This document shows, in pieces, positions 12,178 through 18,100 of a DNA stretch of 64,000 nucleotides. How positions within the stretch are numbered: the first letter of the stretch is position 1; every line of letters begins with the position of its first letter. Source of the stretch: Escherichia coli. Its GTDB lineage: Bacteria; Pseudomonadota; Gammaproteobacteria; Enterobacterales; Enterobacteriaceae. The position numbers were made by a program. The stretch is taken from the NCBI RefSeq assembly GCF_045037415.1, contig NZ_CP173438.1; one strand, 5' to 3'.

Positions 12178-15100
12178 CTATGAAGTGGATAGCTGTAGCA
12201 GCAGGTCCGCTGTTGTGAAGCGAACCTTGATGCCTGCCCGTAGCGGCGGACGCCCATGGCACAGGTGCCGCAGGCGAGCATGCGTTCAACGGAGAGTCGG
12301 GTCCATTAGCTGATGCTGTCAGCGTATTTTTCGAGGAATTTATGTAAGAAGCGTCAAAATGAAAGCGCCAACTAATAATGACAGAATTAATAAAATACCA
12401 GTAAGCGCGTATGCTATACCTTTTCCAATCTCGTTTTTTATGGTACGTCCAATTGAATAAAGGATTAAAGATACCGATAGCAAAACTATCAAAATAAAAC
12501 CATACACTAACGCTGCAAGTGGGCCTGGGTTACTCATAATCATCCTTTATGTTTGAAAATATTCTTATTAATACTATGCTGCTTCCTGTCTGATTCTTTT
12601 GGTAGTAATGCTGATGGGAATTTGCAATCACATCTCTCCATGTGTACATATCAGTAGAGAAAATACCTGAAAGTGGTCTCCAGAGGGGCCGCATAATGGG
12701 TCAACATGGTAAATCTTTACCAAGTTTTGATGCTCCGGAAACGCTTAAGGGCCGTAAAATAGAATGGGAATACGAAAATCTCACCCACGGCAACAAGGCA
12801 TACAACGGATACGTGACGGCCATTCTTAACTGAAATGAAGATAGCGATAATCAGGATGGCTAAAATAAAAAACGCAGGTATCAAAATCATTCCCATGACT
12901 CACGCCCCAGTGAAGTAACATATTATTCACAAATAGATTATTTCCCCGCCTCAGCTTAAACGCCTCTGTTGTAACAGTTTATCAACACCGTGAACTATGC
13001 AACTGTGCTTTTTTATGGCTTACGCCGCACCGTCCTTTTTAACTTCTCGCCAGATTCGCCATGCCATAAACGCCAGAACGGCAACGCCAAGTATTAACGC
13101 CCCCCACACCAGCAGCGTTTTCCACTGACTTTGTTGTTCGGCTGCCGACGTCGCCGTTAGTCGCAATTCACCGCCGAGAGTTACGCTCTCCTGCGGTATA
13201 GCCCACGGCAGATTATCTATCTCCTGCGTTTTACGCAGCGACGCAGGGATCAACATATCGAGTCCAACATCGGCCTTTTTCGCCGCCCGGTTTCCCCACG
13301 CCAGCATGTAAGGACCTTTGCCTTGCGTGTTAAAAACCAGTTGATAACTGTCGCGCGCACCGCTCAATGCTGGCAATGCCTCCGGCAATCGCGCATTAAT
13401 TGTACGTATTCGAACAGCCTCAACTAACTGGCCAGGAAGACGAATATCTTCTGAACGCTTCCCGTCCAGGCGATACAACACCGTTTTTGTCAGTGACTGC
13501 CAGGGTTCTTTTTCGCCGCTGCGCCAGACCAGTTCCACCGGTAAAACGCCTTCATTTTCCAGATCGATCCGCAACGATGTCAGGGGCTGCGGCTGTGTCC
13601 ATCGCCAGACGGCTTCATCATCCGACACCTTATCCGCCCGAGCGCCAATCACAATACGTTCGGACTCCGGCTCATTACTGTCAGCAATAGCGCTCACGCT
13701 GTTTAACGTCAGTGCCGGGCTTTGCGAGTTGAGGATCACCAGCAGGTAGCGATTTCCTTCAAGTGACAATGTCAGGTTGGTGCTGATGGCGTCCATTTTC
13801 AGACGATCGCTATCCCGCGTCAGATCCATTAACGGCGCATCTTCCTGCACGGGTCGCCAGTAGCGTAAATCACGGCTGACATAAACCGAGGCTTTCCCCT
13901 GCCAGTTGCCCGTCGGCGTCCCCCAGTTCAGACGCAATTGCGTCAGTGAAAGAGAGTCTTTCCTCTCTTCCGGCAACGTCAGTAAATAGCTCTGCCCGAG
14001 CGCAGTGACATCATCGCTTTGCAAATGAATTTCAATACCGTTTTTTGAACGTAAAACAACAGCATCCCCACTACGTTGACCCTCATCACGCGGCGGAACC
14101 GGCGACATATCAAGCGGGAAAAGACGCAGAGCCACTGTCTCTGGCGTAACGGTCTGGGTTTTCTGCGCCACCAGCGCAAACGGCACCATATCCCCCAGAT
14201 GGTTAAAAACCCGCACATCGCGCAAATCCGGCCATGCAGTGCTCTGATACACCACCTGCGGCAGCGAAATGCGATACCAGGGCGAATGCCCCCGTGGTTT
14301 CCAGCGCGACGCCTGTTGCGTAGTCCGTTGGCGCTTCCTTCACTTCATCGCTGCTGACCGCCGCGCCCGCAGTACTCAGTAGCACGCTGCATAACACCGC
14401 TTTCATCCATTTCATTTTTCTTCTCCCGCTTTGGGCGGTAACGGTGAAAAATACCCGACGATTAGCACCAGAATTGCCACGCCGATAAACGTGACCGCGC
14501 GTGCCAGGCCGCCGCCACGCGCACTGTCTACCAACATCAGTTTCACAATAACAATCCCTAACAATACGGATCCACAAAGCCATTCGCGACGTGAGCAACG
14601 CCGGGTCGCACGTAGCATCACCACTAATGCCGCCAGCATCCAGAACAGGGCAAAACAGGTCTGAATCAGCCGCGAATGCCACAGTGTTTCCGCGCTCCAG
14701 GGCACTTCGCCGTACCAGGCCAATGCGCGCAGCAGGATGCCATTCAGCCACCAGAAGCTAAGCGCCAGCAGTGCAATGAGCGGCCAGGGACGGCATACCG
14801 AAATCTGCACCGGGAAAAAGCGCTGCGAAACGCGATAAAATACAATGAGTCCCAGTAGCGCAAAAGCGGCCCCCTCCTCCAGTGGATTCACCAGCGGCAG
14901 CCAGGTCTGGCGATAAACTACGCCATCCTGCAAATTCGTCAGTACTAGCAGAACAACCAATACCGCAGCTACCGGTATCATCGCCTGAGAAGCGTAGAGT
15001 GCGGGCCAGCTTCGGAATGGCCATAGCTGACGATGAACCGCCTCATGAACGAGAAAGATGAGCAGGCCCCCCGCGGCCATCATCAGGCCGGAGCCCCACG

Positions 15101-18100
15101 CCGCCATGCCCCATGGCAGATCTTGCGCAAACCAGAATAGCTCCGCCGCCAGCGCGAGCAGAATCATCCAGAAGAGTGAAAGGTGCGCCAGTCTGGAGAG
15201 GCGCGGCGGCAACGTCTCAGCATCACGCCAGAGCAATGCCCCCGCAGCGGGTAACGCCAGACACCAGGCCAGATTCTGCCAGCCCGCAGCAAAAATCTCA
15301 TGTTGTGAAATTTGAGACAGCAGCATCACCAGCATCGTCGGCCACAGCAACCATTTGCTGACATCCAGCTCCCACCAGGCCAGACGACCAGAGACAATCC
15401 GCCAGCCCCAGACCGATATCGCCATTAACGCCAGCACGCCAGACAGCACCAGCGAGTCCTTTTTCAGCACCAGTTGCGATGCCCCAATGAGCGCGATTAT
15501 CCAGAAGATCAAACCGCCAGCCAACAGAACCCAACTACCCTGCAACTGAATATTGCGCCACAGCCAGGCGGCAGCCAGCCAGCTGAGGCTGAGTACGGCA
15601 AAGATTAGCACCAGAGAAAGCGCGCTCATCCCGTTCATCTGCGCCCACAGCGCGCTGCACACTGCCAGCACCAGCAGCGCAGTGCCGCTATAGCTCATAC
15701 GCCGCTGCTGCTGTTGCACGCCCAGCCAGAGGATGCCGAGACCTTCCAGCGCCCAGGCCATCGCCGTCCAGCGGGCCGAAAGCGCCAGTGGGATAGCGAG
15801 CGTGGTAAATGCCCCACCCAGCGCCAGCGCCGCCAGCACCAGCGGCCTCCCCAAAGAGGGATAGCGACGCAATGCAAGCCATGCTAACGCCAGATAGAAA
15901 CCGCCGTAACCCAGCGCGCTAAGCGCCGGACCATATTCCATATGCCGGGTTATGGCGTACTGCATGCCAAAACCGACCAGCGGCGATGCAAACAACAGCA
16001 CGCCATCAATAATCTGCTTACCTTTCTCCTGTGCTCGTAGCGATAGCGCCACGCTCAGCACACCAAAAATGATCGTATTGGCTATCAGGAAAAGCTGACT
16101 GCTCAGGTAATACTCTGATCGATAGCCGTCGAGTCCCCAAAGACCGCCGATACCAAAGGTAAATAACAGGCCAAGCAGATTAAGCTCGCGCCAGTGTTGC
16201 CAGATGCTGATGGCGAGAATACCGACGGAAAGCAGAAGGTAGAAAGAGAAGAGCGCCACATGACTACCGCCGCCGGTGGAAAGCAACAGCGGTGCCAGAT
16301 AGCCACCGATACTTGCCAGCATCGCGAGGCTGAGCGCTTTTTGCATAATCGCCAGTCCCACGCTCGCCGCGCAAATCGCCACCAGTAATGCAAACGCCAG
16401 CGTCATCGGCAGCATCTGCCAGAGCCAGAATGCGCCAAAAACGGTGAGATAGAGCGTCCCCGTAGCTCCACCCTGTATGATCAGCGCATAAACCAGCTGT
16501 TTATGCCGCAATCGCCAGCCCACTACCAGCAGGGCAATCGCAAACAGCGAAGTCGCCACCAGACGTAGCTCAAGCGGGAACAGGGAGTGTTCAACCGTAT
16601 AACGCAGCAGGAAGGAGAAGCCAAGGAAGAGAAGCAGAATACCCAGCTTTGCCAGCGGGTTGCCCTGCATAAACCAGCGCACCAGGGACGACATCACCCC
16701 ACCAAAAGCGGAAGATTGTTCGACCGCTGGTGTGGGTAGCGCCTCGTTTTGCGGCTTCGGTTGTGGACGCCAGGGGTCAACGGACTCAGGCGTGACATCA
16801 GCCACAGGCTCCGACAGCACGATGTTAACCGCAGGCGAAGACGTTTCAACAGGCACAACCATCTGCGAAACACTCTGCGGCACAGTTGTTACCACTGTGG
16901 CGGGTGCTTCAGTCACACCGCGCTGCTCAAGCACCTCCACCCGGCGACGCAGGGTCGCCAGCTCAGAACGAACAGCCGTGCTGCGGCTGAGCGCGATAAT
17001 CGCGAGGATGGGAACCACCACCAGTGCGAAGAATAAAGCAATGCAGCCAAGGGTTAGCAGCTCATCCATGTTTCCACCGTCGCGGTATAAAGATGGGTCA
17101 GAATGACACAAACTGTTGTATTTGTGCCATATGCATTAGCAAAGCGAGCCGCTTTTTCAGAAAATACCATCAACCTCTGCACGCAGGCAGAAACTGTAAA
17201 ATGCGATTAAAACGCAAAGCACGAACAACCGGGCATTCGTGACCAGAATGTATCTCTGTTTACTTTAAGTGATGAGGTTTTGGATCTACGCACTACTCTT
17301 CCGCTTCTGAGGCATTGCTGCAGCTCTTTTTTTAAAGCTCCCCGGGTTGGTATAAAAAGCGTTTTATAAATCATTTCATGTGACACATGCATTTCCTGAT
17401 TATCGGGATAACAGCGTTTTAGCCAACCGCCAATTTGTTCCGGCGACCAGTCCTGATGCATCTTCTCTGCAATGATTTTACACAATGTGGGGCTTTCAAT
17501 TAGCTTGCAAGGTTTTGGTCTCAGAGCATTTTCCCACGCAGCAGGATCGGCTTTTGCTGCACGGTATTGTTTTGCACCGCCGTGCCTCCTGATCTCGCGG
17601 CTAATCGTTGAGGGAGCTATTGATAATTTAGCAGCGATGTCCCTGATGATGCGTTTTGCTACCAGTCCTCTGGATATCTCCTCTTTTTCATCAAGCGAAA
17701 ACGCTAACCGGTGCCGCTTTCGCACGGGAGGACGGTAGCCACCGGCCTGGTGGATTGTAGGCATGATAGTAGAGTGAAATCTGTCGAACATTCTGGGGGA
17801 TATCATGCAGGGAATCACCTTGCTTATATCTGTCCCAAATAATCACCTTTTGCTCTGGCGTGTAGTTAATACGAGTTCTTCGTTTCATGGCAACGTCCCC
17901 CTTGATTAGGGACAGCGTTGCATCGACCCGTTGAACTCACAGCTCAAAGCGGACATGGATCACTTACTGGATATGCACATCGTTCCAATGCGCATATCCC
18001 ATTATGATTGACAACGTAATACGCCCTTATCAGAGATCGCAGATAGTTAAATTCAAGAAAGTAAGCTAGTCCTTCACTTTCATCGTGAAACCACGCCAGT

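Follow-up and report, generated by a model that had tools for sequence, protein, structure and literature searches.

The window analysed here, a 64,000-nt stretch of Escherichia coli DNA, carries an arc3AB operon that is very probably a horizontally acquired 4.2-kb cassette from a Citrobacter-like chromosome, residing in an island of the E. coli lineage to which O25b:H4-ST131 belongs, with arc3A intact, arc3B a recent pseudogene and rare isolates in which the arc3B frame has reverted at a G run. A reading of the sequence alone had likened the genes to a DUF2339/DUF3999 pair, and Pfam bears this out: the larger protein contains two PF10101 (DUF2339) domains (model positions 1–659, E = 5.5e-107 and 2.2e-47), and the main frame of the smaller gene matches PF13163 (DUF3999; E = 1.7e-96). 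The accompanying view that the pair is of unknown function did not stand, as these families are Arc3A and Arc3B (PMC8926400).

Organization of the locus

All features below lie on the minus strand and are given in window coordinates.

14412..17069, minus: DUF2339 gene, arc3A homologue; 885 aa, intact, polytopic inner-membrane protein (RefSeq WP_000343920.1)
13020..14415, minus: DUF3999 gene, arc3B homologue (PF13163); best read as a frameshifted pseudogene, 1396 nt (3n+1); 'frameshifted' in PGAP
14203..14415, minus: signal-peptide frame, 70-aa ORF by translation (arc3B codons 1–44, 26 out-of-frame codons and a stop)
14289..14293, minus: G5 run in arc3B, within the overlap of both frames; G4 in rare E. 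coli isolates
14285..14286, minus: TT doublet in arc3B, where parsimony best places the original +1 insertion (DNA alignment, three orthologues)
14285/14286, minus: position of the T of the probable T-indel site in arc3B, written GGGGGCAT(T)CG, 3 nt after the G5 run
14192..14196, minus: further G5 run within arc3B; a single record (CP054248.1) has G4
14412..14415, minus: ATGA stop/start overlap of arc3A and arc3B (translational coupling)
14423-14426, minus: GGAG Shine-Dalgarno motif, 7 nt upstream of the arc3B ATG
17070..17230, minus: donor-derived leader 5′ of arc3A (end of the donor amidohydrolase gene, terminator hairpin and conserved arc3A 5′ region)
17207-17209, minus: TAA of the donor amidohydrolase gene, found with its last codons by alignment of upstream regions
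17171-17196, minus: terminator hairpin of the donor amidohydrolase gene (terminator scan)

The large polytopic protein of 899 aa that the sequence-only reading described was found as an ORF from a TTG (14412–17111); RefSeq and the orthologues use the ATG at 17069 as the start codon, for a length of 885 aa (MDELL...). The ATGA coupling was likewise confirmed, the overlap being conserved in four orthologous loci (L002, L003, L005 and L006). Also as described, a signal-peptide frame precedes and overlaps the main arc3B frame, and the G5 run sits inside their overlap: the former begins with the ATG at 14415 and ends with the stop at 14203–14205 (70 aa, MKWMKAVLCSVLLSTAGA|AVSS...), and the latter is open from 14336, with a listed ORF at 13020–14255 (411 aa). 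Removal of one base from the 1396-nt region gives a 464-aa ORF that aligns over its full length with 464-aa orthologues. Promoter and terminator scans were uninformative except for the relic terminator hairpin 5′ of arc3A.

Relationship to known Arc3 systems

Ting et al. (eLife 2022, PMC8926400) defined Arc3A by its membership of PF10101 and Arc3B as the PF13163 product encoded next to it; the PF13163 gene of the window adjoins the Arc3A-like gene with a 4-nt overlap, in keeping with that definition, and the pair counts as a typical representative of this known family. In the same work Arc3 protected against the T6SS lipase toxin Tle3, independently of Aas, and Arc3A functioned without Arc3B; co-immunoprecipitation of Arc3A with Arc3B comes from Pseudomonas aeruginosa only, and heterologous Arc3A proteins complemented, that of Citrobacter rodentium partially doing so in P. 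aeruginosa without arc3A. A second study extended Arc3 protection to TseL and Tle1, and Gac/Rsm regulates Arc3 in Pseudomonas. No mention of DUF3999 by name was found in the literature searched, and NCBIfam and PADLOC searches with both proteins returned no match, Arc3 being absent from either library.

The window shares with P. aeruginosa Arc3A/Arc3B (PA5114/PA5113, antagonism resistance cluster 3) the same Pfam pair, order, adjacency and orientation, a very large polytopic Arc3A and an Arc3B that has an export signal at its N-terminus and a TM helix at its C-terminus; the likely role is T6SS phospholipase defence through blocking of lysophospholipid accumulation. However, the P. aeruginosa cluster is a core Gac/Rsm-regulated locus, whereas the E. 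coli operon appears to be a recent horizontal acquisition on a mobile island. P. aeruginosa Arc3A has 35 predicted TM segments compared with about 18–27 helices in E. coli Arc3A, the E. coli Arc3B signal peptide differs in resembling a substrate of signal peptidase I (AGA|A) rather than a lipoprotein signal, and only the E. coli arc3B is frameshifted. E. coli also possesses LplT/Aas, which counters the same damage (lysophospholipids from phospholipase A attack on the envelope), but does so with unrelated proteins and a known enzymatic mechanism of flipping and re-acylation.

The chromosomal arc3AB loci of Citrobacter, Kluyvera and Leclercia are true orthologues (Arc3A 75–86 % and Arc3B 75–84 % identical) and share the ATGA overlap with E. 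coli; the farmeri-type loci L002 and L003 also share the conserved upstream leader. In these genera arc3AB is a core locus flanked by an amidohydrolase or amylase gene on one side and by ahpC-acpH-queA on the other, a context that the E. coli copy has lost, and arc3B is intact (463–464 aa), unlike the frameshifted E. coli gene.

Arc3A

arc3A is intact in the window. Its product is 75 % identical end to end to C. rodentium Arc3A (TA05_RS00690), a gene whose identity was confirmed by the match of the PMC8926400 cloning primers to both its ends, and dN/dS against orthologues is 0.13–0.15. The N-terminal region comprises a TM segment (residues 9–27), a short helix and a Pro/Val/Thr-rich linker to approximately residue 120. 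Kyte-Doolittle hydropathy (threshold 1.6) placed 18 TM segments in total, 17 of them past the linker, while an AF2 model built from 30 close homologues contained about 26–27 helices after residue 121, at low confidence (pLDDT 52), and was left out of the fold search. By hydropathy and this low-confidence model, the protein has the unusually many, densely packed TM helices that characterize the family. Sporadic in-frame deletions and truncations occur in some isolates, suggesting that arc3A is not strictly maintained everywhere.

We infer that E. coli expresses arc3A and is protected by it. Arc3A would most likely act there as in Pseudomonas, limiting the build-up of lysophospholipids (for the family, lyso-PE and monolyso-cardiolipin) from phospholipase toxins delivered by the T6SS of competing bacteria (Tle3, TseL and Tle1), and this action would require no cognate Arc3B.

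Distribution and island context

The arc3 locus is present in 506 of 5426 complete E. coli genomes (about 9 %), and a 75-mer was identical in all 506; in a control, a single mismatch pushed the match below the ≥99 % band. No diverged arc3 copies were found in other E. coli. Homology to the Citrobacter-type loci extends from window position 17230 to about 13007–13033, varying by locus, and the resulting cassette of ~4.2 kb is bounded by IS remnants. It lies in an integrase- and IS-rich island between ychF and dhaR, where a retron-type reverse transcriptase and an ABC-three-component defence system are encoded as well.

A plasmid-borne arc3 was considered and rejected, as the 'plasmid' matches are non-mobilizable records of 377–542 kb containing the same chromosomal island. 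One of the records has in addition lost 1 nt, and in the other arc3B is truncated.

arc3B is split by a frameshift

A normal Arc3B consists of a signal peptide, three periplasmic discoidin/CBM32-like beta-sandwich domains and a C-terminal membrane anchor, and 19 of 19 aligned orthologues are single ORFs (454–470 aa). In the window, signal peptide and body lie in separate frames; export signal, body and C-terminal TM helix are united on one polypeptide only after repair of the sequence or in rare G4 alleles. The PF13163 match of the main frame begins at model position 26, indicating that the N-terminus is missing. The C-terminal anchor previously predicted for the 411-aa frame is supported by hydropathy (residues 433–451) and an AF2 helix (424–462).

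One extra base after codon 44 parts the signal peptide from the body, so that coupled translation would yield just a 70-residue peptide. The 411 codons of the main frame contain no further stops, and dN/dS is 0.13–0.22 compared with 0.14–0.18 between intact orthologues, suggesting that the lesion is recent relative to orthologue divergence. The window arc3B is thus best read as a recent pseudogene, with Arc3B function presumably lost. The second G5 run, read as G4 in CP054248.1, has in that record either decayed further or been misread at the homopolymer.

Origin of the frameshift and its probable rare reversion

The orthologue profile places the shift at 14285–14293; the protein profile by itself, however, scores G and T indels almost equally (837.6 vs 837.5 bits) and does not discriminate between them. 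At the DNA level, three orthologues read CATCGCC where the window reads CATTCGCC, and deletion of a T leaves two to three fewer mismatches than deletion of a G (nucleotide parsimony, the same three orthologues). The T-deleted product (...TTGASPWYR...) also matches P0001 exactly across that stretch. The comparison suggests that the original lesion was probably a duplication of T at 14285/14286, 3 nt past the G5 run.

From this parsimony alone it was first concluded that the G run was not involved, a conclusion overturned when an exact-sequence look-up returned G4 alleles. These were found in ten draft contigs (L014–L023), at least three of them clean, and encode an intact 464-aa Arc3B, the exact product of which (P0389) is present in the public collection. 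None of nine other frame-restoring variants (T deletion, seven further single-base deletions and a +GG insertion) occurs in that collection, and the G run is the sole place where E. coli isolates differ in restoring the frame. Five of the ten contigs carry other homopolymer indels, so G4 there may be a sequencing error, and some TPA and Logan contigs perhaps derive from the same sequencing runs, leaving maybe just ~7 independent G4 isolates. The sequence-only reading had offered the G run as a slippage site: the run does vary between isolates, but the orthologue DNA points to the T duplication downstream of it as the original lesion. We infer that the two indels occurred in the order T then G. 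The T duplication would predate the diversification of island-bearing E. coli, and the later loss of one G from G5 in rare isolates would have restored the frame with a single Ala44-to-His change.

The same alleles can be read in reverse, because the sole intact E. coli allele observed has G4 together with TT: G4 (intact, His44) could be ancestral in E. coli, with the window frameshift a +1 G slippage that then swept the lineage and the G4 isolates its relics. We regard this order as possible but unlikely. Among ~15 billion proteins the only intact E. coli allele is indeed G4, the T-deleted version being absent; homopolymer runs are indel hot spots, and residue 44 varies among orthologues. Against this, all three orthologue DNAs disagree with the window at the site as described above, the G4 allele departs from the orthologues at four of six clustered bases, the signature of a compensated indel pair, and ~4 events are required rather than 2. 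Isolate relationships also favour G5 as probably the older state. The SNP at 21596 divides complete genomes ~360 vs 229 (75-mer spanning the site), and G5 is seen with either allele (the 21596T records seen, L001 and L011, also have G5), whereas the G4 contigs covering the site all have the allele of the window. G4 contigs differ from the window by 0–1 SNP across as much as 21 kb, whereas the G5 strain SK1144 is more distant (3 SNPs). A C>T SNP at 16075 was found in none of the 506 complete genomes and is therefore uninformative for placing the G4 isolates.

That the G run is a contingency switch toggling Arc3B in ST131 populations would fit the occurrence of G5 (off) and G4 (on) in otherwise identical islands, a homopolymer length polymorphism that switches frame, and the restriction of reversion to this run. 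Contingency loci of Neisseria, Haemophilus and Campylobacter likewise have a coding poly-G tract in which a one-base length difference turns the frame on or off. However, known phase-variable tracts are ~7–8 nt or longer and the arc3B run is 5 nt; its ON state accounts for ten contigs against at least 1000, at most ~1 %, and for none of the 506 complete genomes, which fits neutral mutation and falls short of the frequent ON/OFF states of such loci. Unlike contingency tracts, the run probably just compensates a separate T insertion, and Arc3B is merely auxiliary in Pseudomonas. Phase variation is therefore very unlikely.

Programmed +1 ribosomal frameshifting or transcriptional slippage at G5, making the run a regulatory recoding site for full-length Arc3B, is more improbable still. 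Within GGG-G, a shift of tRNA-Gly pairing from GGG to the +1 GGG is conceivable, the product would equal the natural G4-allele protein, and the G-rich sequence resembles the Shine-Dalgarno-like stimulator of prfB. Yet frameshifting is used by none of the 19 aligned orthologues, GGG is followed in the A site by the common codon GCA, neither a stop nor a rare codon, G5 is much too short for efficient transcriptional slippage, and the arrangement is limited to one clonal E. coli allele. Frame restoration at the G run is best read as ordinary homopolymer mutation rather than programmed recoding.

An assembly or sequencing error hiding an intact arc3B in this genome is a negligible prospect and is excluded for the lineage: although homopolymer runs are typical error sites and some draft contigs show scattered homopolymer indels, the 75-mer is identical in 506 independently assembled complete genomes, at least 1000 contigs have the 70-aa frame annotated as a hypothetical protein, the Logan drafts concur with those of NCBI, and PGAP/RefSeq already labels the gene 'frameshifted'. 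Of the three causes originally put forward (inactivating mutation, assembly error or slippage), the first is the one supported.

Biological significance

The frameshift itself is an ordinary pseudogenising mutation, already flagged by RefSeq. A more ambitious reading, in which ST131 gained an Arc3A-type T6SS-lipase defence that aids gut colonisation and the G5/G4 run serves as a low-frequency reversible switch between Arc3A alone and an Arc3A-Arc3B complex, is speculative and quite unlikely. The G5 (broken) and G4 (restored) alleles in otherwise identical islands offer a natural test of what Arc3B adds to Arc3A. The restriction of arc3 to one lineage including ST131, inside a defence island, makes it a candidate for a factor that helps a pandemic clone to colonise or compete. 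For E. coli genes that carry only the labels 'DUF2339' and 'DUF3999, frameshifted', the link to Arc3 supplies a testable function, resistance to lipase toxins that competitors inject.

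Gene arrangement and assignment to Arc3

The sequence-only reading had described a large polytopic membrane protein coupled to a frameshifted signal-peptide protein and had named DUF2339/DUF3999 operons as the likely family. The sequence features are present, and the HMM search it had proposed assigns the proteins to these Pfam families (first protein DUF2339, E = 5.5e-107; second protein DUF3999, E = 1.7e-96, match from model position 26); hence, that observation is real, and it and the family named were largely correct.

Features of the arc3AB genes and of the Arc3A protein
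14412-17111, minus strand: longest arc3A ORF, 899 aa from a TTG (ORF translation)
14412-14415, minus strand: ATGA overlap of the arc3A stop (TGA) and the arc3B ATG (sequence)
14203-14415, minus strand: arc3B signal-peptide frame, MKWMKAVLCSVLLSTAGA followed by AVSS..., 70 codons from the ATG to a stop at 14203 (translation)
13020-14336, minus strand: DUF3999 body in the +1 frame, open from 14336 to a stop at 13020 (translation)
14289-14293, minus strand: GGGGG run within the overlap of both arc3B frames (sequence)
Arc3A residues 9-27: N-terminal TM segment
Arc3A, short charged helix: RSELATLRRRVEVLEQRG
Arc3A up to about residue 120: Pro/Val/Thr-rich linker

The two-gene layout, the separate frames and the G5 run within their overlap were thus as first read, with the main frame open from 14336 (about 14340 in that reading). 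The size of 899 aa holds for the ORF from the TTG; in RefSeq and in all orthologues the start is the ATG at 17069, so that the product has 885 aa and begins MDELL. A GGAG motif lies 7 nt 5′ of the arc3B ATG. The arc3B region (13020-14415) is 1396 nt long, i.e. 3n+1, and removal of one base yields a single 464-codon ORF.

The predicted topology of Arc3A stood in part: the N-terminal TM segment is present and hydropathy gives 17 further hydrophobic segments after the linker, but the segment proposed as a coiled coil is better described as a short helix. The AF2 model (pLDDT 52), usable for secondary structure only, has about 27 helices. arc3A is full length in the window, with a dN/dS of 0.13-0.15 against orthologues; sporadic isolates have in-frame microhomology deletions or truncations. 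Some drafts lack 56 codons (15678-15832 region, between 15-nt direct repeats; window 15664-15846), leaving 829 aa, and some draft E. coli lack 58 codons (15267-15426 region; window 15254-15448), leaving 827 aa. The label 'beta-carotene 15,15'-monooxygenase', given in some sources to the products of 885 aa and 829 aa, appears to be a misannotation.

A full-text search on both DUF names led to the study of Ting et al. (eLife 2022, PMC8926400), which gives the name Arc3A to P. aeruginosa PA5114 and Arc3B to PA5113, and defines an Arc3 homologue as a PF10101 protein with an adjacent PF13163 protein. In that work, survival against the B. thailandensis T6SS phospholipase Tle3 depended mainly on Arc3A, which kept lysophosphatidylethanolamine and monolysocardiolipin from building up by a route independent of the Aas/LplT repair pathway; Arc3A co-immunoprecipitated with Arc3B, whose contribution to defence was small, and Arc3A from other species, including Citrobacter rodentium, restored defence to a statistically significant degree (PMC8926400). 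According to a later preprint, Arc3A also protects against V. cholerae TseL and A. baylyi Tle1. The primers published for cloning the C. rodentium gene correspond exactly to the two ends of the DUF2339 gene at our C. rodentium locus (L006), and the window Arc3A is 75 % identical to this protein end to end. As the pair combines PF10101 with an adjacent PF13163 and is orthologous to a tested member, the E. coli locus is, on sequence grounds and by the authors' own definition, an arc3AB locus. The conserved arc3A leader (~17076-17085, minus strand; GGTGGAAACATGGA around the start) holds GGA motifs that may be CsrA/RsmA sites, of note because Pseudomonas arc3 is Gac/Rsm-regulated.

Origin of the cassette and its island

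Orthologues of Arc3B with up to 84 % identity occur in Citrobacter, Kluyvera, Leclercia and related genera, and are intact 464-aa proteins, not the two-ORF arrangement of the window. There, arc3AB is chromosomal, with an amidohydrolase (or amylase) gene on one side and ahpC-acpH-queA-tgt on the other, and has the same 4-nt overlap. Homology of the window to these loci starts at 17230 and, varying with the locus, ceases at about 13007-13033; the upstream 160 nt retain a donor leader comprising the end of the amidohydrolase gene (final codons and stop), its terminator hairpin and the conserved arc3A leader. Both sides of the cassette are bounded by IS remnants, and it lies inside a ychF-dhaR island with two integrases, radC, an Ec67-type retron reverse transcriptase and an ABC-three-component system.

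By RefSeq annotation of the colinear region of E. coli strain SK1144, the Ec67-family retron reverse transcriptase/endonuclease gene and the three-gene 'ABC-three component system' occupy ~28270-33800, where no retron msr/msd RNA was found at the Rfam gathering score. Relative to SK1144, the window has a 2.26-kb insertion (8546-10815) interrupting an ISEc24 (IS3-family) transposase gene; two ORFs of this insertion (9203-10297 and 10339-10725) together form a split reverse transcriptase of group II intron type (YADD motif), and its end matches the Rfam model for group II intron domain V/VI (10729-10815, 64.9 bits). An IS5 copy (about 1.06 kb) present in SK1144 at ~34306-34314 is missing from the window, which therefore represents another isolate of this lineage. 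Upstream of the cassette, a 465-aa ORF (18066-19463, minus strand; RefSeq: 381 aa), with no Pfam family on record, is kept in all island copies examined. A segment of the AlpA-like HTH gene of the island (21559-21633) is found in 589 complete E. coli genomes versus 506 for the arc3 cassette, so about 83 genomes have the island backbone without arc3.

Site and history of the lesion

Comparison with orthologues placed the lesion at 14285-14293, which includes the G run suspected initially; the DNA points to a T just beyond it. In a profile of 19 orthologues, the best repair scores fell at 14285-14293, with no separation between deletion of a G (..TTGHSPWYR.., 837.6 bits) and of a T (..TTGASPWYR.., 837.5 bits). 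In the nucleotide alignment, CATCGCC in all three sequenced orthologues corresponds to CATTCGCC in the window; the T deletion leaves two to three fewer mismatches to each orthologue than the G deletion, and its product equals the Arc3B orthologue P0001 exactly across ..TTGASPWYR... The DNA mismatches and this protein match argue for a T duplication at 14285/14286, 3 nt past the G run, as the original lesion, and for an intact ancestor already having G5 (ACG-GGG-GCA).

Exact-sequence look-ups found the G-deleted 464-aa protein (P0389) in E. coli under three NCBI accessions; the T-deleted version was absent from the collection, as were eight more frame-restoring variants (seven other single-base deletions and a +GG insertion). 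P0389 is encoded on ten contigs (L014-L023), all reading ACGGGGCATTCG (G4, TT kept) and all in the same island. L015 and L016 show no other difference across 21 kb, nor does L020 across 7.8 kb; L014 and L018 have one SNP in common; and L017, L019 and L021-L023 have further homopolymer indels, so that G4 there may be sequencing error. Since TPA and Logan contigs may share sequencing runs, the ten represent about seven isolates, at least three of them clean. A 75-mer spanning a SNP at 21596 was exact in about 360 complete genomes and different in about 229. Both 21596T records examined (SK1144 and L011) have G5, and the G4 contigs covering this position have the window's allele and are nearer to the window than is SK1144.

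The most economical history would begin with an intact donor-type arc3B having G5 and a single T; duplication of the T would then have produced the frameshift, the essentially fixed state of the window, and occasional loss of one G would restore the frame with an Ala44-to-His change, a rare state. That G4 is instead ancestral and the window allele a G insertion requires more events and is unlikely, though worth weighing.

Distribution of the frameshift

Of 5426 complete E. coli genomes, 506 carry a 1.6-kb region at 99 % identity or more, and going by record names many of these are O25b:H4-ST131; the window itself is E. coli chromosome. When a 75-base query with the G run at its centre was searched, the match lay in the at least 99 % band in 506/506 genomes, and a control query with one substitution dropped to the 95-99 % band in 506/506; therefore, every complete carrier genome has exactly this 75-base sequence. 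A sensitive search found no diverged copy in other E. coli. RefSeq/PGAP labels the gene 'DUF3999 domain-containing protein, frameshifted', and the 70-aa frame is annotated on at least 1000 contigs of a public collection.

Three explanations had been offered initially: inactivating mutation, slippage site and assembly error. The identical 75-mer and the PGAP flag mark it as an inactivating mutation. Slippage holds insofar as the run is polymorphic and G4 restores the 464-aa frame. A true phase-variation switch is nevertheless improbable, given a run of only 5 nt and an ON state seen in 0/506 complete genomes and in no more than about 1 % of contigs. Programmed +1 ribosomal frameshifting is more doubtful still: re-pairing of tRNA-Gly on GGG-G is formally possible, but frameshifting occurs in none of the orthologues, the run is followed by neither a stop nor a rare codon, and the arrangement is limited to one clonal allele. 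That the gene is really intact and the frameshift an assembly error is practically excluded for a sequence shared by all complete carriers, flagged by PGAP and seen as a 70-aa frame on so many contigs.

Consequences for Arc3 in E. coli

The Arc3 family is already characterised and the frameshift already flagged in public annotation; new here are the link of the E. coli/ST131 locus to Arc3, the delineation of the acquired cassette and the reconstruction of a T insertion followed by G-run reversion. For arc3B, dN/dS is 0.13-0.22 between E. coli and orthologues and 0.14-0.18 between intact orthologues, and its 411 codons hold no further stops; inactivation is therefore recent relative to divergence from the donor genus. 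One record, CP054248.1 (STO_Bone4, a 542-kb 'plasmid' record resembling chromosomal sequence), has an extra 1-nt deletion that turns the second G5 run of arc3B (14192-14196) into G4, and another has a truncated arc3B.

Coupled translation of the G5 allele would yield only a 70-residue signal-peptide fragment, and re-initiation in the main frame would give a product without a signal peptide, so the beta domains would remain cytoplasmic; Arc3B function has thus probably been lost. Pseudomonas Arc3A functions without its cognate Arc3B (PMC8926400), and arc3A of E. coli may therefore well still be protective.
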